DNA from: Candidatus Aenigmatarchaeota archaeon
GTDB lineage: Archaea; Aenigmatarchaeota; Aenigmatarchaeia; CG10238-14; SCSR01
Length of the DNA: 15,765 nucleotides
Reading direction: 5' to 3'
Assembly: GCA_039091335.1 (NCBI GenBank)
Contig: JAWCME010000008.1
Location: forward strand, 1 to 15,765
Under the pieces are notes generated by a model, which was not told where the DNA came from, did no database searches, and saw only the letters and a list, made by a program, of their open reading frames with translations. Shown in pieces: positions 1-13,766 of the stretch. Position 1 is the stretch's first letter; the number at the start of each line of letters is the position of its first letter. The position numbers and the translations under genes are program-made.

Positions 1-427
1 ACCAGACAAATATACAAAAACAGGGTCTTTGGCATCTGTTTTAAGCAAACCAATTTCTAAGTGTGCTATTTGATGACAAACAGGAATTAAAGGTTTATTA
101 AATTCTTTCGAAATTTTTTTAGCAAAATTTGCACCAACCAATAAACAAGGTGGTAAACCAGCACCAGCAGCATAAGCTACAATATCAATATCCTCCATTT
201 TCAAACCAACTGCCTTTAATGTGTGATTAAAGATAAACCCTATGTTTTTTTGATGAAAATCAGCTGCTTCATGTGGAATTATTCCTTTACCAAGAGATGG
301 TTTATAAACAGATTTTTCATCAGCCAACACATTTCCTTTTTCGTCAACAATCCCGATACCAAAAGTATTTCTGCAATTATCTTTGAGCAGTACTTTCGAT
401 ACCCAGACAAATTAATTTTTCACCCAT
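1..427 (-). CDS. kae1: Kae1/TsaD tRNA N6-threonylcarbamoyladenosine (t6A37) synthase, 3'-partial, split by a 16-nt intron; join(complement(385..427),complement(<1..368))
   Basis: Manual translation; not in the ORF track. Exon 1 from ATG 427: MGEKLICLGIESTA plus one C. After removing 369-384: HTFGIGIVDEKGNVLADEKSVYKPSLGKGIIPHEAADFHQKNIG...DIDIVAYAAGAGLPPCLLVGANFAK...KPLIPVCHQIAHLEIG...KDPVFVYLSG, open to position 1. Contains the Kae1 GIESTAH motif, the HxxxH metal motif and the start of the SGG motif. Confidence 0.95.
369..384 (-). other. Putative 16-nt bulge-helix-bulge (tRNA-type) intron in kae1 mRNA, AAAGAUAAUUGCAGAA
   Basis: Sense RNA folds as GGUAUCGAAAGUA-CUGC-[UC^A]-AA-GAUAA-UU-GCAG-[AA^A]-UACUUUUGGUAUC: a 13-bp exon-exon stem, two 3-nt bulges and a 4-bp central helix. 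Removal restores GCU CAU ACU UUU (A-H-T-F). Confidence 0.88.
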
Positions 428-469
428 AAATCTAAATTCTATAAATTTAAATAAACCTTTAGATGGTTT
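428..469. promoter_or_regulatory. Compact divergent promoter region for kae1 and hel308, probably leaderless transcripts
   Basis: 42-nt AT-rich gap between divergent ATGs. TATAAATTTAAATAAA (440-455) gives TATA-like boxes about 20-30 nt upstream of both starts. No clear SD. Confidence 0.5.
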
Positions 470-2659
470 ATGAAAGTCGAAGATCTTTCAAAATATGGTA
501 TACCTGAACATTTTATAAAAAAGTTCAGGGAGGATGGAATTTTAGAGCTTTACCCACCTCAAGAAGAAGTTGTTAGAAAAAAACTTTTTCAAGATAAAAA
601 CTTGGTGATATCACTTCCCACAGCCGGAGGCAAGACATTTATCGCGACCTTAGCCATGATAAACAAACTTTCTTCTTCAAAATCAAAGATAATTTACACA
701 GTTCCTTTGGTCGCTCTTGCCAACGAAAAATTTGAATATTTTAAAAAACTTTTTGAGGGAAGTTGGAAAATTGCTATTTCTGTTGGTGATTTGGACTCAA
801 GCGATCCTTGGCTTGCTGATTATGATGTGATAGTTTGTACGAATGAAAAACTTGATTCTTTGATAAGACATGGGGCACAATGGATTAGAGAGATCGGGTT
901 GATTGTTGTTGACGAAATTCATATTTTAAATGATCCTAATAGAGGGCCAACTCTTGAAATTTTGTTGACCCAACTTAGAGAAATCACCCCGAAAGCACAA
1001 ATTCTTGCTCTTTCAGCAACTATAAACAATGCTAAAGATTTAGCAGAATGGTTGAATGCATATTTGCTTGAAAGCGATTTCAGACCAGTAAAACTTTACG
1101 AAGGGGTTTATTATGATTCAAAAATTTTCTTTTACGACAAAAAAGGATATGAACTAAGCGATTTGGAACCAGAAGCAGCAATTGCTGAAAATGTTTTGCA
1201 ACTCAAAAAACAAGTTTTGTTTTTTGTTGCAACTAGAAGAACAGCAGAAAGCCTGGCAGAAAGTTTGGCTAAAACAACAAGGCTTTATTTGAAAAGAGAA
1301 GAAGAAAAAGAGCTTCAAAGTCTTTCTGAAGAGATTTTAAATATTTTAGAAATACCAACACAACAATGTAAGAAACTTGCAGCTTGTATTAAAAGTGGAG
1401 TAGCTTTTCATCATGCAGGTTTGTTGGGAAAACAGAAAAGGCTCATAGAAGAGAAATTTAGAGAAAGGTTAATCAAGATTATAGTGGCAACCCCCACCTT
1501 GGCCTTTGGTGTCAACCTTCCCGCTTTTAGAGTCATCATAAGGGACGCGAAAAGATATTATCCTGGTCTCGGAGCAGTGTATATTCCAGTTCTTGAGTAC
1601 AAACAATTTGTTGGGAGGGCAGGAAGACCAACTTACGATGATTTTGGTGAGTCCGTTTTGATAGCGAAAACAGAAGAAGATGCTCAAGATTTAGCAGATC
1701 ACTTCATCATGGGTCAGCCTGAAGATATTCAATCCAAACTTGCTCTGGAGCCAATTTTGAGAATGCATATCTTAGCTTTAATTGCGAGCGAATTTTGTAA
1801 ATCTGAAGAATCTTTAAAAAAATTCTTCTCAAAAACTTTTTATGCTTATCAATTTGGTGACACCTCTCTTTTGGAAGAAAAAATTAACAATATCTTAGAG
1901 CAACTCACAATCTGGAAATTCATCGTTTCTAAGAAAGGAAAAATCTCAGCAACAAGAGTGGGTAAGAGGGTTTCAGAACTTTACATAGATCCTTTAACTG
2001 CTCATCAATTCATAGAAGCTTTATCTAAAGCAGTTAAAAATAGGCTCTATCCTTTTGGTTTGTTACAACTAATTTCAAACACAATTGAGATGAGACCTTT
2101 GCTTTCTGTGAGAACAGGAGAATTTTCTGAGCTTGAGGATATTTTGGTAAAAAGGGAAAGTGAACTTTTACAAGAAATTCCAGATGAATCTGAAATCGAG
2201 TTTGATGATTTTTTAAGAAGTTTAAAAACAGCTTTGATGTTCGAGGCTTGGATAGAAGAAGCAACCGAAGACCAAATTTTAATGAGATTTAAGGTCGCCC
2301 CAGGAGAATTTTATAGTAGAAGAGAAATTGCCGATTGGCTTATTTATTCTTTACAAGAGATCGCCTTGTTGTTAGGATATAAAGAGTTTTTGAGATACAT
2401 AAGAAAGCTTAGAGTCAGACTCGAATATGGGGTAAAGGAAGAGTTGATTCCTTTAGTTAGGCTTAGACAAATTGGTAGGATTAGGGCAAGAAAACTTTTC
2501 AATTCTAGAATAAGAAATCTTGCTGATTTAAAGAAAGTTTCAATTGAAAAACTTTCTTCAATTGTTGGTGTAAAGATTGCAAAATCAATTAAAGAGCAAC
2601 TGGAAAAAAAGGAAGAAAATAAAAAGATTGAGAGACAAGTTACCTTGAAAAGATACTGA
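470..2659 (+). CDS. hel308: Ski2-like SF2 DNA helicase Hel308/Hjm
   Basis: 729 aa. Q motif ELYPPQ, Walker A PTAGGKT, DEIH, SAT, FHHAGL, TPTLAFGVNLPA, QFVGRAGRP and a C-terminal HhH region (IGRIRARKLF). Confidence 0.93.
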   Translation: MKVEDLSKYGIPEHFIKKFREDGILELYPPQEEVVRKKLFQDKNLVISLPTAGGKTFIATLAMINKLSSSKSKIIYTVPLVALANEKFEYFKKLFEGSWKIAISVGDLDSSDPWLADYDVIVCTNEKLDSLIRHGAQWIREIGLIVVDEIHILNDPNRGPTLEILLTQLREITPKAQILALSATINNAKDLAEWLNAYLLESDFRPVKLYEGVYYDSKIFFYDKKGYELSDLEPEAAIAENVLQLKKQVLFFVATRRTAESLAESLAKTTRLYLKREEEKELQSLSEEILNILEIPTQQCKKLAACIKSGVAFHHAGLLGKQKRLIEEKFRERLIKIIVATPTLAFGVNLPAFRVIIRDAKRYYPGLGAVYIPVLEYKQFVGRAGRPTYDDFGESVLIAKTEEDAQDLADHFIMGQPEDIQSKLALEPILRMHILALIASEFCKSEESLKKFFSKTFYAYQFGDTSLLEEKINNILEQLTIWKFIVSKKGKISATRVGKRVSELYIDPLTAHQFIEALSKAVKNRLYPFGLLQLISNTIEMRPLLSVRTGEFSELEDILVKRESELLQEIPDESEIEFDDFLRSLKTALMFEAWIEEATEDQILMRFKVAPGEFYSRREIADWLIYSLQEIALLLGYKEFLRYIRKLRVRLEYGVKEELIPLVRLRQIGRIRARKLFNSRIRNLADLKKVSIEKLSSIVGVKIAKSIKEQLEKKEENKKIERQVTLKRY

Positions 2660-2660
2660 G

Positions 2661-2746
2661 TGGGGTTGCTGGGATTTGAACCCAGATTGCCAGCGTTCTC
2701 TTGAATACCCGAGGCTGGTGTCCTAACCAAGTTAGACGACAACCCC
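2661..2746 (-). tRNA. tRNA-Pro(CGG) with 12-nt intron at 37/38 (2696-2707); CCA not encoded
   Basis: Acceptor stem GGGGTTG/CAACCCC plus discriminator A. D arm GTCTAACTTGGTTAGGAC. Anticodon stem CCAGC/GCTGG with loop CT-CGG-G-[TATTCAAGAGAA]-C. T arm CTGGG-TTCAAAT-CCCAG. 74 nt after splicing; anticodon at 2711-2709. Confidence 0.93.
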
Positions 2747-2762
2747 CCTAATAAGAATTAGT

Positions 2763-3356
2763 TCACTGTTTTATTTCTAAACTTATTTTGACTCTTGTTT
2801 GAGAATTTTTCAATTTTTCAATCAAGCTTTGCTTAAGCTCGCTAGCAGATTTATCCGAAAGAATGGCAATAGTCTTACCATCAATAAGAGAACCCTTCCT
2901 TATGACAATTTCTTCCTTGCTTGCAAGCCTAAGAGCAGGCGAGCCATAAGCAACAAAAACTTCTTCTTCCCCCTCCGCTTCAATTTTCACCTCAACCCTT
3001 CTCGCACTTTTGATTGCAGCCTTAAAATCTTCACTCAAATCCTTACAAGCTTTATCTACATTAACAGCAATTGTAGCATCATCAACATCTAACCCCTTTG
3101 TTATCCTTATTGCAGAATTACTAGAAGCTTTAATTTCAGAGTGCCCGTAGCCAAAAATTTCTTCTTTCACGGGTTTCAATTCCATCAAAAGCTTCCACCC
3201 ACTTTCTGTTGGAATATAAGCCCCACCGGCAGTATAGTGAATCATGCCCCTACTTTCCAAAATTTCAAGAACATTCCTAAGCATGTCAGGAGTTATAGAT
3301 GGCGATGGCTCTGGAGCAATTTCGGGTGGCTGCTGCATTTTCCTTATTTCCTTCAT
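2763..3356 (-). CDS. DUF371-domain protein with N-terminal winged-helix-like segment
   Basis: C-terminal ~135 aa resemble DUF371 (GYGHSEIKA...ITK...VNVDKACKDL...YGSPAL...IVIRKGSLIDGKTIAILSDKSA). N-terminus LRNVLEILESRGMI...YIPTESGWKLL resembles a wHTH recognition helix and wing. ATGA overlap with trmI. Confidence 0.7.
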   Translation of the reverse strand: MKEIRKMQQPPEIAPEPSPSITPDMLRNVLEILESRGMIHYTAGGAYIPTESGWKLLMELKPVKEEIFGYGHSEIKASSNSAIRITKGLDVDDATIAVNVDKACKDLSEDFKAAIKSARRVEVKIEAEGEEEVFVAYGSPALRLASKEEIVIRKGSLIDGKTIAILSDKSASELKQSLIEKLKNSQTRVKISLEIKQ

Positions 3357-4102
3357 TTTATCTTCCTTGCAAAAGTTATGAAGCCAGTGTGCATTATTCC
3401 CATCGTTTTAGGTCTTGTTGTTCTTTCAGTTTTCCATTCTCTTACTATATTTTCAACTGTTTTAATATAAGAAAACCTTAACTTTCTTATTTCTTTGCTT
3501 ACTTTAATAACTTCTTCTATTGTTGGTGAATAAACAACCAACCAACCACCTACTTTTAAAGCCCTATAAGCGTGCTTTACGACCCTTTCAGGATTTTGAA
3601 TATCAACGGTCACAAGGTCAACATTTTTTTCAGAAATTCCTCTGCTCGCATCCTTGTTCTTAATCTTGATGAAATCCGAAAGACCAAAAAGCCTTATGTT
3701 CTTTCCAGCTATTTTTAACATTTTTTTATCTTTTTCGTATCCCACAACTTTGCCAGGTTTTATGTAATTTGCTAAAAAAATAGCTAGAAAGCCCGAGCCA
3801 ATACCAACATCAACTACCAAAGATTTTTGAGCAATTCCAGTATGTGCTAAAATTAAAGCAGCATCTTTCGACATTATTATTTGTGGGCCCCTCTCAGCCT
3901 TTTTTTCTAAAAAATCAATTACGTTTGGTTTAATTATCCTGAATTCTTTTTTGATATGGGTTTTTATTTTATCTCCATAATTTTTCTTTAAGATATCATT
4001 TAAATCAAAGACCCCATCCTTGGTTTGAAGTTTTTCGTTTCTAACCTCTACCAAGTAAGAGGATTCTTCTGATAACAATAATACCAATTCTCCCTGTTTC
4101 AA
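3353..4102 (-). CDS. trmI: tRNA (adenine-57/58-N1)-methyltransferase TrmI
   Basis: 249 aa. RGPQIIMSKD, SAM motif VDVGIGSG, VYSPTIEEV, TRP...HTGFITFARK. TTG start with GGTGG SD. Confidence 0.92.
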   Translation of the reverse strand: MKQGELVLLLSEESSYLVEVRNEKLQTKDGVFDLNDILKKNYGDKIKTHIKKEFRIIKPNVIDFLEKKAERGPQIIMSKDAALILAHTGIAQKSLVVDVGIGSGFLAIFLANYIKPGKVVGYEKDKKMLKIAGKNIRLFGLSDFIKIKNKDASRGISEKNVDLVTVDIQNPERVVKHAYRALKVGGWLVVYSPTIEEVIKVSKEIRKLRFSYIKTVENIVREWKTERTTRPKTMGIMHTGFITFARKIK

Positions 4103-5351: not shown

Positions 5352-6371
5352 ATGCATGCTTATATTGTAACAACCTTCATAGGGGTTTTTGGTGTTAGTG
5401 AAGAAAACAAAATAATTTGTTTTGAGCCATTCCCAAAAAACCCAGAAAAAATAGCAGAAAGATTAAAAGTTTCTGAAATTGAAATCATAAATGAAGAGAA
5501 GAAAGTCCAGGAAGAATTGAAAAAGAAGGGATTTGAGAAAATATTTTTTTCAGTTAGAAAGGAGAATGTTGAAGAATATCAACAAGAAAACAAAGCAGAA
5601 CAGTTTATTAGAGAAAACTTACGTGATTTGGCTTTAAGTTACAAGCTTGTTAAAGATCAAGTTGAATTCAACCAATTATTGACCAAGGTTAGTCTGGAGC
5701 TCACCAAAACCAAGATAAAAAAATCGATAGAAAAGGACAATTTTGCTATCCAAATTGTAAAGATAATTGAAGATATAGATAAGATGACAAACATCTTAAG
5801 CGAAAGATTGAGAGAATTTTATAGTTTACATTTTCCAGAAATGGACAGGTTAATCCAAGACCATAGAAAATATGCTAAGATAGTTGAAAAATACGGCTTG
5901 AGGGAAAAAATAGAAGATTATGAAATCAAGCCAATTGCACAAAAAAGTATGGGTGTTGATTTGGACGGGGAGCAAATCAAAACAATCCAATCAATTGCAA
6001 GTGAGATTTTAAATTTTTATAAACTCAGAGACAACCTATCAGAGCAATTGGAAAAAATTTTAAAAGAAATAGCACCAAATTTCACGATGTTGGCGGGCTC
6101 TTTAATCTCTGCCAAACTTATAGCTAAGGCAGGTAGTCTTGAAAAATTGGCCAAAATGCCTTCAAGCGCAATTCAATTGATGGGTGCAGAGAAAAGTCTT
6201 TTTAGATTTTTACATGGTAAGGGCAAGTCTCCAAGGTTTGGTATAATTTATAATCATCCATTGGTGTTGAATGCACCGGAAAAATTTAAAGNNNNNNNNN
6301 NATATAGGGGGGATAAATTGAAAAAAGAATTAGAAGACAAGGTTAAAAAAATACTATCTTCTAAACCTTAA
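5352..6371 (+). CDS. nop5: Box C/D sRNP protein Nop5 (Nop56/58), interrupted by an assembly gap at 6292-6301
   Basis: ERLREFYSLHFPE, SMG, IAPNFT, AGSLEKLAKMPSSAIQLMGAEKSLFR, SPRFGIIYNHP. The Nop-domain segment expected after this motif falls in the N-gap, so the gap is probably longer than 10 nt. Confidence 0.92.
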   Translation: MHAYIVTTFIGVFGVSEENKIICFEPFPKNPEKIAERLKVSEIEIINEEKKVQEELKKKGFEKIFFSVRKENVEEYQQENKAEQFIRENLRDLALSYKLVKDQVEFNQLLTKVSLELTKTKIKKSIEKDNFAIQIVKIIEDIDKMTNILSERLREFYSLHFPEMDRLIQDHRKYAKIVEKYGLREKIEDYEIKPIAQKSMGVDLDGEQIKTIQSIASEILNFYKLRDNLSEQLEKILKEIAPNFTMLAGSLISAKLIAKAGSLEKLAKMPSSAIQLMGAEKSLFRFLHGKGKSPRFGIIYNHPLVLNAPEKFKXXXXYRGDKLKKELEDKVKKILSSKP

Positions 6372-6575
6372 CATCTTTTTCTCAACCAAACAATAAATCA
6401 AGGCCCCAATAGCCCCAAGAGCCAAAGAAATCGCCAGCCAAACCACTTTGTATTTTGTTCCTTTCTTCAATTTTAAAATGTCTATCATAATGGGGATAAA
6501 AACCAGTAAACTTACTATTCCATAGATTTGTAATATTATAAACCCCAAGTTGATTATATATTCAAAGTTGCTCAT
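6354..6575 (-). CDS. Small two-TM membrane protein (PLDc N-terminal-like)
   Basis: 73 aa with the pattern DIL...KVVWLAISLALGAIGALIYCLV. Fills the nop5-fibrillarin gap and overlaps the nop5 3' end by 18 nt. Confidence 0.65.
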   Translation of the reverse strand: MSNFEYIINLGFIILQIYGIVSLLVFIPIMIDILKLKKGTKYKVVWLAISLALGAIGALIYCLVEKKMLRFRR

Positions 6576-6638
6576 AAAAAATTAATTCTATTTAAAAATT
6601 ATAAAACAGTACTTTAATTAAATTCAAAGGCTGATGCG

Positions 6639-7310
6639 ATGAAGGTCAAACAATCTAAATTTGAAGGCATATTTTTCATTAACAATAAAATAGCCACTCT
6701 TAACACAGTTCCTGGTTACAAACCATTTAATGAAGAGGTTGTAAAAATATCTGAAAAAGAGTATAGGATTTGGGATCCCTATACCTCAAAGCCTGCTGCT
6801 GCAATAAAAAACAACATTAAAAACTTTCCAGTAATAAAGGGGATGAAAATACTTTACTTGGGAATTGCATCAGCAAAAACTGCAACATATTTGAGTAACA
6901 TAATCGGTAGTGAGGGCTTGATATATGGTATAGATATATCACAACGTGTATTGAGAGATGCTATCCCTGTTGCAGAAAGATACGGAAATATTGTCTGCAT
7001 TCTCGGAGATTGTCGAAAGCCAGAAACATATGAAAAAATTATAGTAGATAGGGTCGATTGTGTATACTGTGATATAGCCGACCCACAAGAGATAGAAATT
7101 TTTATAAGAAATTGTGAAAGATTTTTGAAGAGAGAGGGTTATGGGATGGTTGCTGTTAAGAGCAGAAGTATAGATGTCACAAAAAATCCTAGAGTAATTT
7201 ACAAAGAAACTACAAAAAAGCTAGAAGAAAATGGTTTTGAAATTATTGATTTTGTTACACTCGACCCATATGAAAAAGATCATGGATTTTTTGTTGTTAG
7301 ATTTAAGTAA
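6639..7310 (+). CDS. flpA: Fibrillarin-like rRNA/tRNA 2'-O-methyltransferase
   Basis: 223 aa. EYRIWDPYTSKPAAAI, ILYLGIAS, DCVYCDIA, VKSRSIDVT, LDPYEKDH. Confidence 0.92.
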   Translation: MKVKQSKFEGIFFINNKIATLNTVPGYKPFNEEVVKISEKEYRIWDPYTSKPAAAIKNNIKNFPVIKGMKILYLGIASAKTATYLSNIIGSEGLIYGIDISQRVLRDAIPVAERYGNIVCILGDCRKPETYEKIIVDRVDCVYCDIADPQEIEIFIRNCERFLKREGYGMVAVKSRSIDVTKNPRVIYKETTKKLEENGFEIIDFVTLDPYEKDHGFFVVRFK

Positions 7311-7674
7311 GGTCTCAGCTTTTTAAAAATTTTTTCTAAAACTTCAAGGTCATTTAAACAATGTTTAATTATTTTTTCTTTTGCTTTTTCATCACCAGCA
7401 ACTGATTTTATGTAAAGCTTAACAACATCCTTCCCACTAANNNNNNNNNNNNNNNNNNNNNNNNNNNGGGTATATCAAATTTTGACCCATACCAAGTTAT
7501 TATCAAATCACAATTTTCTAATTCTTTTTTAAGCCAAACCAAAGCCTCTTTTTCTTCTTTTAAATTTTCAACAAACCTCACTTCTTTTTTATCCTCTTTA
7601 ATTATACCTATCGCAACAATCTGTCCAATATCAGCACTTATGTTTGTACATTCTATATCTAAAAACATCTTCAC
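7280..7674 (-). CDS. RNase H-like (YprB/DnaQ-type) exonuclease-domain protein, spans assembly gap 7441-7467
   Basis: N-part MFLDIECT...IITWYGSKFDIP. After the gap another frame reads SGKDVVKLYIKSVAGDEKAKEKIIKHCLNDLEVLEKIFKKLRPYLNLTTKNP-stop (TGA 7282-7280), supplying the ExoIII-like HxxxD. The track's end at 7408 is a gap artefact. Confidence 0.78.
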
Positions 7675-7700
7675 ACAATCACATAATTAAAATTTCTTTT

Positions 7701-7729
7701 AAAAAAATTAAAAGGGAGGAGGAGAAAAA
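7701..7729 (-). terminator. Pyrimidine/oligo-T tract, probable archaeal terminator
   Basis: TTTTTCTCCTCCTCCCTTTTAATTTTTTT directly after the stop of the 37-aa ORF. Confidence 0.45.
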
Positions 7730-7843
7730 TTATATGGCTTTTAAGGAACCCCAAACCCTTCCTCCAGAAACCACATTAGTTCTAATCTTTCTAATCCCCC
7801 TATCCATCAAAAATGAAATTTGAATTCTTGCTACCTCTTCCAT
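7730..7843 (-). CDS. Small hypothetical protein, 37 aa (MEEVARIQISFLMDRGIRKIRTNVVSGGRVWGSLKAI)
   Basis: Below the ORF-track cutoff. ATG with a GGTGA SD 5 nt upstream, 9 nt after the zinc-ribbon gene stop, followed by a T-tract. Confidence 0.6.
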   Translation of the reverse strand: MEEVARIQISFLMDRGIRKIRTNVVSGGRVWGSLKAI

Positions 7844-7852
7844 CCACTTCAC

Positions 7853-8047
7853 CTAATGATGAAAACCAAGCTTGTGATAGAGCTCAAGATTAAATTCATG
7901 TAAATTTTTCTGGGACTCCATTTCTCTCGCTCTATTTTCAAGGAAACTCCCAAAACAATTTTTACAAAATATTCTTTTCTGACCAAAACCATCGATGAAT
8001 TCAAATGTTCTTATAGACTTGCATCTCAAGCATCTCATGCTTTTCAC
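7853..8047 (-). CDS. Small zinc-ribbon protein
   Basis: CLRC...CKNC (two CxxC). Start is GTG 8047 or ATG 8038. Confidence 0.7.
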   Translation of the reverse strand: MKSMRCLRCKSIRTFEFIDGFGQKRIFCKNCFGSFLENRAREMESQKNLHEFNLELYHKLGFHH

Positions 8048-8164
8048 TTCACATTTGAATTATTAGATAAGAAATTATAGGTTCTTTTCCCAACCACATT
8101 TCCGAAATTTCCAATGGATCTAATAAAAAAATCATTTTAAACTTTTATTTTTATTAAATAGGCT

Positions 8165-9154
8165 TTAAATTACTTTTTTATCCATAAAAACTGTTAATTT
8201 ACTTAAAATTTCTGATTTGAGTTTTTCTTCGTCTTTTTTATCTATATTTCCAGCCCCAGCTTTCTCATGTCCACCACCAATCTTGAGCTCTCTGAATAAT
8301 TTGCCAACATCCACCTCCCCACTACCATTTCTACCATGAATTCTTATTATATTTTTCTTATCTTCAAAAACAAAAATTATGTTTTCAGGATTTTCTATGC
8401 TAAGCTTTGTTATGAGTGCAGAGCACACCCCTCTGTATCTTGGCTTAATTTTAGACACTAGGATTCTACCATAACTTTCTAGATTTTTTTCAAATTCTTT
8501 TTCACATCTTTCTAATTCTTGGTCAAATTTTTTTGAAGCAGAAATCATTTTTTTATTTTTCACCAACTCTTCCAAATTTCTTGAATTCAGAAGAATTTGC
8601 AATGTTTTTTCTGGTCCCAAAACAGAAATAGAAGCCCCGAGGAGCATTGCGGCTTTACCAAACTTACTCTTCCAAATGTTTTTTTTACTATTGATTTTCA
8701 CCAAATCTTTGCAGTTTTCAACCCCCAAATCACCAACCGTTCCTACAGCCGCAGCCCATTTTTTATCTTTAAGTAAATTTTTAAACATTTTATAAACGAC
8801 ATAGCTTGTCGGCTGATAAATTTTAGGGCTCTCCATTCTAGGGTTGATCAAAATTATCTTTTCTGAGGTTAGATCCTTTCCAGGATGATGGTCAATTATC
8901 AACATTTTTTTCTCTATGTCAAGAAGATGTTTTTCAATCAAATCAATTGGTACATCAACCGTTATGATTTTCTCAAACCTTTTGAGCCTTGTTTTTAATC
9001 TTTCGATATCGCCGAACCCCATTGGTATCGATTTTTTTATTTTTTTCCCCATTTTTTTAAAAACAATTAGAATTAGTGCAGCGGAAACAACCCCATCCAC
9101 ATCTGTATCATAAACCAGGGCAACCTTCTCCTCCCCTATATCTTCGACAAACAC
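8165..9154 (-). CDS. DHH-family phosphoesterase (RecJ/NrnA-like) with DHHA1 domain; true start may be CTG at 9190
   Basis: YDTDVDG, ITVD, IIDHH, GTVGD, GGGHEKAGAG motifs. Confidence 0.88.
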   Translation of the reverse strand: MFVEDIGEEKVALVYDTDVDGVVSAALILIVFKKMGKKIKKSIPMGFGDIERLKTRLKRFEKIITVDVPIDLIEKHLLDIEKKMLIIDHHPGKDLTSEKIILINPRMESPKIYQPTSYVVYKMFKNLLKDKKWAAAVGTVGDLGVENCKDLVKINSKKNIWKSKFGKAAMLLGASISVLGPEKTLQILLNSRNLEELVKNKKMISASKKFDQELERCEKEFEKNLESYGRILVSKIKPRYRGVCSALITKLSIENPENIIFVFEDKKNIIRIHGRNGSGEVDVGKLFRELKIGGGHEKAGAGNIDKKDEEKLKSEILSKLTVFMDKKVI

Positions 9155-12677: not shown

Positions 12678-13766
12678 CTAGTCTACAAAATCTATCCCCA
12701 AAATTTTTTCTATATCTTTTCTTTCTTCTTTCGTCCATTTTTTACCAGGTCCGAAAATCTGTGGTGATTTAACCCCTGTTATTACAAGCATTGCCCTTAA
12801 AGTTTCTCTCAACTCTTTTGCTATCTGTGCCCCCCAAATTATTTTTGCATCGGGTGAAAGTTTAGTTGAAACAGCCTCAACAATCTGTTGAGCTTCTCTT
12901 ATAGTTATGTCAGGACCCCCTACAACATTTATTAAAGCACCAGTAGCCCCGTTAACATCAACAGTAATCAAAGGATTTGTTAAAGCTCTTTCCACAGCTT
13001 CCACAGCTCTATTTTCGGTGTCACTTTCACCCATTCCTATCATAGCCAACCCTCCATTCTTCATCACACTTTTTACATCTGCAAAATCCAAGTTCACCAA
13101 ACCAGGTTTTGTTATAAGTTCAGCAATTCCCTTGACAGCATTAACTAAAACTTCATCACAAATTTTGAAAGCAGTGGCTAGAGAAACGTCTGGAACAACT
13201 TCTAAAAGCTTGTCATTCGGTATGACTATCATTGTGTCGACATGGTCTTCCAAGTTTTCTAAACCTTCTTTTGCATTTGCCATCCTTTGTTTTCCCTCCA
13301 TACTAAAAGGTAATGTCACGACAGCAACTGTTAAAATTCCAAGCTTTTGGGCAATTTCAGCAACCACAGGCAAACTTCCAGTTCCAGTTCCACCACCAAG
13401 TCCACAAGTCAAGAAAGCCATATCCGCCCCATGTAACGCCTTTTTTATGTCTTCTTTACTTTCCCTTGCTGCTTCCATCCCAATTTTGGGGTCACCACCG
13501 GCTCCCAAACCAGAAGTAAGCTCCCTTCCAATTAAAATTTTTTTATCAGCATCAGTGTACAACAAATCTTGTGCATCAGTATTTATAGCAATGGTTTCAG
13601 CCCCAACAATCCCGACTTGCATTAGTCTTGTTATTGTATTGTTGCCAGCCCCACCAGCCCCAACAACTTTTATTTGAGTTTTTCTACTTTCCAAAATTGT
13701 TCTCAATTCTTCATCTATTTCTTTTGCCCTTTCAGAAGGTTTTTCTGTAAACTGTCGAACTCCCAT
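12678..13766 (-). CDS. ftsZ: Cell division protein FtsZ (FtsZ1-type by gene context)
   Basis: [36 protein letters not shown]. Confidence 0.98.

Follow-up and report, generated by a model that had tools for sequence, protein, structure and literature searches.

The window analysed here is the whole 15,765-nucleotide (nt) contig JAWCME010000008.1 of a Candidatus Aenigmatarchaeota archaeon, and the subject is kae1, a gene at the left end of its minus strand whose reading frame is broken by 16 extra nucleotides inside a conserved motif. Kae1 modifies tRNA position 37 (t6A), and its gene is universal and essential. The window is contig C28 of an assembly (G000) of 569,737 bases in 29 contigs, which is 87% complete with 1.1% contamination and about 33% G+C; in what follows G, C, L, g and f mark genomes, contigs, loci, genera and families. 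We argue that the extra bases are very probably an intron of the bulge-helix-bulge (BHB) type, the kind that archaea remove from their tRNA precursors. The features of the locus are, in window positions:

385 to 427, minus strand: kae1 exon 1, from the ATG through base 1 of the His codon; encodes MGEKLICLGIESTA plus the C of CAU, with the motif as in intact orthologs.
369 to 384, minus strand: predicted BHB mini-intron of 16 nt, sense AAAGAUAAUUGCAGAA, starting with A and ending with AA; placed from the frame break and parsed beside 14 orthologous introns.
1 to 368, minus strand: kae1 exon 2, the AU of the His codon, then TFGIGIVDEKGN and onwards; continues on contig C5.
391 to 408, minus strand: 5' strand of the predicted outer exon-exon helix h, with 13 base pairs (bp) at 403-391, a G-G mismatch at 404 and 4 further pairs at 405-408.
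350 to 367, minus strand: 3' strand of the outer helix h, 367-355 with the extension 353-350.
387 to 390, minus strand: 5' strand CUGC of the predicted central helix H, from the Thr/Ala codons ACU GCU.
371 to 374, minus strand: 3' strand GCAG of the central helix H, intron sequence.
384 to 386, minus strand: 5' bulge UCA, predicted cut UC^A.
368 to 370, minus strand: 3' bulge AAA, predicted cut AA^A.
375 to 383, minus strand: weak inner element, AA at 383-382 with UU at 376-375 around the loop GAUAA at 381-377.

The gene begins with the ATG at 427-425 and continues beyond the left end of the window. The first frame from this codon reads MGEKLICLGIESTAQR and then meets a stop; a second minus-strand frame takes over with TFGIGIVDEKGNVLADEKS and has no stop as far as the left end. 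Between the two lies a register gap of 16 nt, the insert at 384..369, which falls within the His codon of GIESTA-H-TFG. These bases count as extra because intact orthologs read LGIE(S/G)TAHTFG(I/V)GI without interruption. A first-pass annotation, made from the DNA letters alone, had placed a 16-nt interruption at this very codon (369-384), and the two frames confirm it. The tRNA splicing endonuclease of archaea, EndA, cleaves after the second nucleotide of each bulge of a BHB. Cuts made by this rule would yield GCU CAU ACU UUU, in which both frame and motif are restored as had been predicted; shifting both cuts by one base in the 3' direction gives an identical product.

The transcript can also fold around the insert in the way that such cuts would call for. 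In the outer stem, 403-391 pair with 355-367 over 13 bp, including G-U pairs at 402/356, 399/359 and 397/361, and beyond the G-G mismatch at 404/354 the stem is extended by four pairs of 405-408 with 353-350. RNAfold gives the minus-strand segment 345-415 a free energy of -23.8 kcal/mol, against -10.3 +/- 2.4 for 200 shuffled sequences (z = -5.7), none of which was as stable. The minimum free energy structure includes the 4+13-bp stem, the 4-bp central helix and the AAA bulge. The 3-4-3 geometry of a BHB is present as UCA / CUGC:GCAG / AAA, with the bulges on opposite strands and each 3' of its helix strand, which is also where the bulges lie in a pre-tRNA with the canonical 37/38 intron. All the pairings named in the first-pass annotation (the stem, the G-G mismatch and the extension beyond it, the CUGC/GCAG helix, the bulges, the AA/UU pairs closing the loop) are thus found in the sequence.

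From this anatomy and from the comparisons below we infer, with a probability of roughly 0.88, that the 16 nt at 384..369 are a genuine BHB intron, spliced out of the pre-mRNA that a DPANN archaeon makes from kae1. In the kae1 transcript, codons 7-11 would pair with codons 16-20 to make a stem of 13-17 bp, and this stem would present the 4-bp helix CUGC/GCAG between two 3-nt bulges. EndA would then cut UC^A and AA^A, and the ligase RtcB would join the exons, restoring the His codon as C|AU together with the frame of a single-copy essential gene. The family to which the intron would belong occupies one site in a minority of related species, with what appears to be frequent coming and going. The intron probably travels, or used to travel, in the company of free-standing LAGLIDADG homing endonuclease genes adjoining kae1 in some genomes, and by splitting the likely target of the endonuclease it would protect that target; in the window genome the endonuclease gene would be gone, and the intron would be an orphan.

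The first line of support comes from related genomes. Of 29 kae1 loci from 40 such genomes, 27 have a contiguous motif and two are interrupted at the same place, by 18 nt (G006) and 16 nt (G014). A wider screen used the N-terminus of an intact ortholog as query and flagged matches that started late or contained an internal stop. Within the family (70 genomes, 66 with a kae1 match) it found 11 carriers including the window genome, all confirmed in the sequence, and a pattern search brought the total to 12 of 70. At the level of the order, with 118 genomes, and of the class, where 330 of 371 genomes have a match, at least four further carriers were confirmed among the matches listed; three flagged genomes (G087, G033, G321) were false, since they lack an insert and their stop lies ahead of the start codon. 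A DNA pattern derived from 15 introns has exactly one match in each of 22 of the 371 class genomes, as compared with two matches of the reversed-pattern control. These 22 genomes fall in eight families, none of them among families f21-f40; G132 and G238, the latter in f27, were missed by the pattern and found via their endonuclease neighbour. Carriers therefore number at least 24 of 371 class genomes (DPANN, with loci titled Aenigmatarchaeota), and this is a lower bound. In a named genome collection, the strict form of the pattern occurs in kae1 context in 15 loci, mostly titled Candidatus Aenigmatarchaeota archaeon; one of them, outside the class and with a 29-nt insert, is titled Candidatus Iainarchaeum archaeon. 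The scan of the whole collection returned 113 stretches in all, mostly long-gap chance matches in bacteria; apart from the 15, three passed the peptide filter by chance and were rejected.

The insert measures 13, 14, 16, 17, 18, 21, 24, 28 or 30 nt within the class, and its distribution is patchy, with carriers a minority even within genera (pattern matches in 2/6 genomes of g11, 2/4 of g5, 1/11 of g6, 1/4 of g37, 1/9 of g20 and 2/6 of g25). A Kae1 protein tree was built from 42 rows, 15 carriers and 27 intronless genes (mostly one per genus), leaving out the carriers found later and most intronless genomes. On this tree the trait requires 12 changes, at least five of them forced by starred branches, and shuffled labels give a mean of 12.6, so the trait is not clustered. 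The nearest rows to the window genome are a carrier (G072, 79% identity) and an intronless genome (G019). The pattern fits frequent loss, frequent gain, or both. Metagenomes scanned with exon 2 gave 15 loci of 36-63% identity, none with the insert (0/15); as they are at most 63% identical and all insertless, they provide no pair of strains that differ in its presence.

The second line of support is that what is conserved in the insert is its structure and not its sequence. Fifteen introns of 13-24 nt were parsed and aligned; the sequences are related and not independent, so the support from covariation that follows is overstated. A single cutting rule restores the frame and the motif G(I/F)E(S/G)TAHTF(G/S) in all 15, and by eye in G132 and G238 as well, and the 3-4-3 geometry is likewise found in every aligned intron. 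Pairing in the central helix is complete in the 15 genomes (60 of 60 cells) while its sequence varies: one pair is U-A in 11 genomes, C-G in three and U-G in one, another is G-C in 14 and G-U in one, and in three genomes CCGC/GCGG replaces CUGC/GCAG. The first inner pair is kept in all 15 through five double changes (A-U in 10, U-A in three, C-G in two). In the outer stem, base 3 of the Gly codon covaries with base 1 of the Ile/Val codon (C-G 6, U-A 5, U-G 3), and base 1 of the Ser/Gly codon with base 3 of the Thr codon (G-C 6, A-U 4, G-U 2). Taken over all pairs, 88.9% of cells are paired, a share that falls to 34-45% if each position is matched with a partner shifted by one to three columns. 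Changes on both sides are seen in seven pairs, and the covariation score of 0.274 stands against 0.162 for shuffled alignments (none of 500 as high) and 0.04-0.13 for slid partners. The 3' bulge is AAA in 13 of the 15 genomes and AUA in two. The inner helices differ wholly from genome to genome, as judged by eye (AGCU/AGCU, AGU/GCU, AGU/ACU, CCUAC/GUAGG, CCUAA/UUAGG).

The exons appear to be adapted to this fold as well, and in intron-bearing genes only. Of the 13 outer pairs, 12 or 13 are formed in 13 of the 15 intron-bearing genes (mean 11.9), and the two genes that fall short, with eight pairs each, are also the only two whose inner helix has 5 bp. In 30 intronless genes the number of these pairs is 6-11, with a mean of 8.5 (Mann-Whitney p = 2e-6 against carriers). 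The His and Thr-Ala codons are also restricted: His is CAU and Thr-Ala is AC(U/C) GC- in all 15 carriers, as opposed to many codons at these positions in intronless genes. The comparison with relatives thus supports, by same-site inserts, the cutting rule, covariation and codon adaptation, what the first-pass annotation had proposed, namely a tRNA-type intron in kae1 mRNA: the insert is patchily present among relatives, compensatory changes from U-A to C-G are found in the CUGC/GCAG helix, and the rule that gives an intact product in the window does so in each of the 15 introns.

There are other ways in which a cell could live with such a break, or a database could acquire one. In the first, the ribosome would bypass the 16 nt or shift frame over them, with the hairpin as a stimulator and no splicing at all, and the strong stem that surrounds the gap is in keeping with this. 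We nevertheless consider translational recoding very improbable because the insert lengths vary: they range over 13-30 nt and include inserts of 18, 21, 24 and 30 nt with in-frame stops, so that no single shift or hop fits them. A bypass would also have no need of the 3-4-3 geometry, of conserved cut sites or of compensatory changes inside the skipped part, all of which are found, and no matched take-off and landing codons were seen by eye.

The second possibility is that the gene is dead or dying, or that the break is an artefact of sequencing or assembly; an indel would have arisen by chance in a pseudogene, or the contig end would have been wrongly assembled. It is worth looking closely at the state of the gene in this respect. 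The family PF00814 has two matches in the assembly, at C28:1-309 (model positions 9-113) and C5:6-500 (model positions 109-264); they are the two halves of one kae1, and the assembly holds no second copy. The left ends of C28 (window 1-20) and C5 (1-20) are reverse complements of one another over 20 nt within kae1, and the two contigs can therefore be joined there. Contig C5 carries the continuation of the gene in a frame that is open for 200 amino acids (aa), and the 316 aa that follow exon 1 align over their full length with orthologs of 310-318 aa. The first-pass annotation had allowed that an intact second kae1 beside a decaying one would undo its reading; what is found is a single copy whose remainder is open. 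As to the DNA itself, four DNA runs (X1-X4) of one hot-spring metagenome study contain parts of the window, and no RNA run is listed for it; positions 321-480 are covered by X1 only. A Logan contig from X1 (1,338 nt, depth 5.3) covers window 1-1200 and 88 nt beyond it with one substitution and no indel, which speaks against an assembly error, albeit in a run that may come from the same source sample. The position of kae1 at a contig end, the low depth of 5.3 in the sole covering contig and the failure to find EndA in the assembly would all suit an artefact or a pseudogene. Such an origin is scarcely credible, however, since the insert is conserved with covariation: at least 24 species-level genomes have an interruption at this site, with changes that preserve the structure, the gene is the only kae1 of its genome and open in the rest of its length, and the 16 nt recur without any indel variant in the separate Logan contig. 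No better placed is the notion that the insert is retained and translation of Kae1 starts at an internal codon past the break, giving a shorter protein, with the 15 codons of exon 1 either lost or translated into a peptide of their own. In its favour, no stop interrupts the exon 2 frame from minus-strand position 410 onwards, and a TTG-started 43-aa frame exists in another register. Such a protein would, however, lose the G-I-E-x-T-A-H motif, which is kept in all 30 intronless orthologs examined and which every intron-bearing gene preserves whole ahead of its break. Because exon 1 is conserved and its codons covary with exon 2 so as to keep the stem, which would be unexplained if exon 1 were dispensable, the notion is very improbable.

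Splicing of kae1, which we continue to prefer, would need EndA and RtcB. The window genome has a match to RtcB (PF01139, E 4.6e-85) that covers the first 209 of the 426 model positions and lies at the end of contig C25. EndA is above the cut-off in all 20 relatives searched, mostly as a single open reading frame (ORF) of about 180-200 aa. According to part of the paper by Kaneta et al. 2018 (PMC5829648), several DPANN lineages combine much disruption of tRNA genes with alpha4-type EndAs that bear an additional "L3" loop, and because of this association the cutting of relaxed motifs is plausible here. The stable RNA genes of the window genome are themselves long. At one locus (L204, C1:78000-97000), the large-subunit rRNA gene (5873-9100) has 3,228 nt against 2,987 positions in the Rfam model (+241), the small-subunit rRNA gene (14676-16421) has 1,746 nt against 1,478 (+268), and two tRNA genes (13449-13551 and 17265-17389) are 103 and 125 nt long, which suggests that the rRNA and tRNA genes of this genome carry many small inserts; the first 728 model positions of the small-subunit gene are free of any. 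Rfam finds three tRNAs at this locus, of which a tRNA finder recovered one; the tRNA list that aragorn gave for the genome with introns allowed was implausible and was set aside.

Several observations weigh against the splicing of kae1 in this genome. EndA was not found in the 87%-complete assembly, either with PF01974 or by tblastn with the EndA ORFs of six relatives (best E 0.11), and the second half of rtcB was not found in it either. The inner helix of the window motif, two A-U pairs, is missing from the minimum free energy structure, so that the 5' cut site sits in a 12-nt loop. The first-pass annotation had called the motif a canonical BHB; its 3-4-3 geometry and outer stem hold, and its inner helix is weak, so that in the predicted fold the motif is of the relaxed kind (hBH / HBh', or bulge-helix-loop) and not the full hBHBh'. 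Among relatives, 13-nt introns have no inner helix at all, as compared with 5 bp in G043 and G066. As the inner helix is weak here and missing in some relatives, cleavage of kae1 would need an enzyme that accepts relaxed motifs, a property that we attribute to it by analogy with other DPANN lineages. Run X1 may be the window's own source sample, and the Logan contig would then be an independent assembly and not independent data. Finally, the shared exon flanks of carriers may reflect descent or co-conversion, in which case the contrast in outer pairs between carriers and intronless genes (means of 11.9 and 8.5) overstates independent selection.

The question of how such a small intron could spread brings us to the neighbours of kae1. 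A LAGLIDADG gene, in one case a remnant, adjoins kae1 in 8 of the 24 carriers. The best defined group, which we call type A, consists of ORFs that share the strand of kae1 and immediately precede it, with no more than about 20 nt between their end and the kae1 start codon, as seen in G063, G050 and G138. These ORFs share two LAGLIDADG-like motifs. An AlphaFold (AF2) model of type A (predicted local distance difference test score, pLDDT, 73; predicted template modelling score, pTM, 0.76) matched PI-SceI/VDE, I-DmoI and I-SceI in Foldseek with E values of 7e-8 to 1e-6, and a template modelling score of 0.65 on I-DmoI; a sequence search of the PDB with the endonuclease alignment gave nothing meaningful (best E 0.41). 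A type A profile run against the 371 class genomes returned five close homologs (E < 1e-140, in G063, G050, G138, G132 and G238), and all five lie directly upstream of an intron-bearing kae1. In three more carriers the neighbour is of another kind: a LAGLIDADG gene upstream of kae1 in G125 (PF14528, E 4.7e-5), one downstream of it in G080 (E 2.9e-11), and a 56-aa LAGLIDADG remnant beside it in G101.

Homing has its own difficulties. There is no endonuclease gene beside kae1 in the window or in the continuation on C5; the start codons of kae1 and of the helicase gene on its other side are 42 nt apart, too close for an endonuclease gene to fit upstream of kae1 in the window. Likewise, 16 of the 24 carriers are without an endonuclease neighbour by the queries used. 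In the intronless G015 (L020, contig C89), on the other hand, endonuclease homologs flank kae1 on both sides (5-808 and 2513-2965). These homologs resemble the LAGLIDADG ORFs of G080 (74% identity) and G125 (31%), and the exon codons of G015 are unlike those of the carrier type. Another 26 intronless kae1 loci, searched with 1.5 kb on either side, gave no endonuclease match at E <= 1e-3. Elsewhere in the window genome, a LAGLIDADG domain lies inside an 830-aa ORF on contig C26, and a LAGLIDADG_3 remnant with an internal stop (L225, C25:36557-36637, E 1.3e-3) lies about 450 nt upstream of rtcB (37091-37729).

A second gene shows the same association. On contig C17 of G060, the P-loop HHG|K|TTLTD of the gene for elongation factor 2 (EF-2; L207:1540-1790, minus strand, with GTP_EFTU and EFG_III matches) is split by a 33-nt insert with the anatomy of the kae1 insert: CCAC, GGA, an inner hairpin, GUGG and AAA. 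Directly upstream is a 555-aa ORF with helix-turn-helix and LAGLIDADG domains (L207:1763-3427, minus strand), a distant member of type A (PF14528, E 2.3e-6). The first-pass annotation had gone further than kae1 and suggested that this lineage splices protein-coding mRNAs with its tRNA machinery. The EF-2 gene of G060 fits that claim, and a genome-wide BHB scan over the split ORFs of the window genome does not add to it: the kae1 site was recovered, and there was no enrichment over the reversed control with either loose (31,245 against 31,363) or strict (171 against 186) settings. A side observation concerns G065, in which a 531-aa distant type A relative (L208:633-2225, contig C12) lies directly upstream of an EF-1alpha-like gene (2265-3569, named by eye) whose GHVDAGKST motif is uninterrupted.

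It is tempting to see in these arrangements a selfish cassette of two parts, of a kind not described before: a free-standing LAGLIDADG gene at the start codon of an essential gene and, a few codons downstream, a BHB intron of 13-33 nt, the immunity half, that splits the target of the endonuclease within a highly conserved motif. The tRNA-splicing enzymes of the host would neutralise the intron, and such cassettes would move between DPANN archaea, invade time and again the conserved 5' motifs of housekeeping genes (kae1, and EF-2 in G060) and leave orphan introns behind after the endonuclease has decayed. We regard this picture as an even bet. It was also observed that the Hel308-type helicase gene adjacent to kae1 in G080 (L063:515-3994, minus strand; 1,160 aa) contains a LAGLIDADG intein (Intein_splicing, Hint_2 and LAGLIDADG_3 matches). 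With the LAGLIDADG gene beside kae1 in the same genome, this makes two different selfish elements in neighbouring genes.

Turning to the surroundings of the gene, the divergent neighbour of kae1 in the window is:

470 to 2659, plus strand: helicase ORF of Ski2/Hel308 type, 729 aa, named by eye from motifs and synteny.

This neighbour is also present in relatives, and its ortholog in G080 matches DEAD and Helicase_dom4_arc. In most genomes kae1 sits between the Hel308-type helicase gene and a PRC-barrel/LigT-like pair (names given by eye). In the interval between the two start codons of the window, an AT-rich TATA-like stretch, UUUAUUUAAAUUUAUA (440-455, minus strand), was noted by eye 13-28 nt upstream of the kae1 ATG; it suggests a leaderless or short-leader kae1 mRNA, in which the BHB stem would start about 19 nt into the transcript. 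Two other loci deserve a brief mention. In G162, paralogous ORFs of 185-188 aa with the same initial residues and no Pfam match stand on either side of kae1 (L157:891-1454 and 2626-3180, minus strand), and a metagenome contig has, upstream of a truncated kae1, what looks by eye like a sequencing adapter (L214:1-70), probably unclipped.

Small introns of this type have been seen in archaeal mRNA before. A 2023 review (PMC10485636) gives, in the part available, "at least two" as the number of archaeal protein genes for which splicing by the tRNA machinery has been shown, cbf5 and HVO_1309, and considers further cases likely to exist; it also describes the HVO_1309 mRNA of Haloferax volcanii as cut by the splicing endonuclease. 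Full-text searches of the openly readable literature yielded no paper on a kae1 intron, nor on BHB introns in the protein genes of DPANN. A close parallel is the cbf5 intron of Crenarchaeota, which is known to us through sections of Yokobori 2009 (PMC2738675): there, too, a short intron sits in the gene for an RNA-modifying enzyme, within a relaxed BHB-like motif for which the tRNA splicing endonuclease is proposed, and gains and losses are seen among related species. The cbf5 introns, at 16-44 bp, have a similar size range, are too short to encode a nuclease, and their origin was left open there. The kae1 intron differs in gene and in site, and in belonging to DPANN and not TACK; the EndA that would act on it is probably, to judge from relatives, a single-subunit protein of about 180-200 aa and not the heterotetramer associated with cbf5. 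No free-standing endonuclease gene is reported for cbf5 in those sections of PMC2738675, whereas LAGLIDADG neighbours are found in 8 of 24 kae1 carriers. It should be kept in mind that the splicing of cbf5 was shown experimentally, while that of kae1 is proposed from sequence comparison. With HVO_1309 the kae1 intron would share the processing of an archaeal mRNA at a BHB by EndA, in a different organism and gene.

The comparison extends to the BHB introns of archaeal tRNA and rRNA. These have the same 3-4-3 geometry and cutting rule, depend on EndA and RtcB as kae1 would, and have a LAGLIDADG partner in the rRNA introns that encode homing endonucleases such as I-DmoI (PMC2738675). The kae1 intron differs from them in that its host is an mRNA, the frame of which must be restored, and in being far too small for an ORF; the endonuclease gene, encoded within the rRNA introns, is free-standing in relatives and directly upstream of the kae1 start codon. 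A precedent for such a division of labour is collaborative homing, in which, according to part of a review (PMC3984707), free-standing endonucleases work with group I introns that lack an ORF. In that system, as would be the case here, the endonuclease gene lies outside the intron, the insertion site coincides with the target, the carrier gains protection from the intron, and intron and endonuclease gene are moved jointly. Unlike those introns, that of kae1 is not self-splicing and needs the tRNA splicing enzymes of the host, and the setting is archaea and not phages; we offer the likeness as a hypothesis for the kae1 LAGLIDADG proteins. A more distant relative is found in eukaryotes. There, Ire1 cuts the HAC1/XBP1 mRNA at stem-loop sites, a tRNA-type ligase seals it again and the reading frame changes, in a regulated, stress-induced manner. 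Cleavage of an mRNA without a spliceosome, followed by tRNA-type ligation, would be common to both; the endonuclease and the motif differ, and for kae1 there is no sign of regulation.

If the kae1 intron is what it appears to be, a new gene and a new superphylum, DPANN, are added to a known and very small kind of archaeal mRNA intron. The message for Kae1, the enzyme that modifies tRNA position 37, would then depend on the very enzymes that mature tRNA anticodon loops. Introns of 13-30 nt with a strict 3-4-3 geometry and almost no inner helix would also make a natural set of substrates for learning what the splicing endonucleases of DPANN accept. For those who work with the genomes of these tiny archaea there is a practical consequence, in that annotation will miscall such genes as frameshifted or truncated and thereby bias estimates of completeness and metabolism. 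Lastly, the link to free-standing LAGLIDADG genes could make the kae1 intron more than a new case of a known kind. It points to a route by which mini-introns could spread, which the work on cbf5 had left open, and the two-part cassette, if true, would answer the question of how introns too small to hold a nuclease enter the protein genes of archaea.

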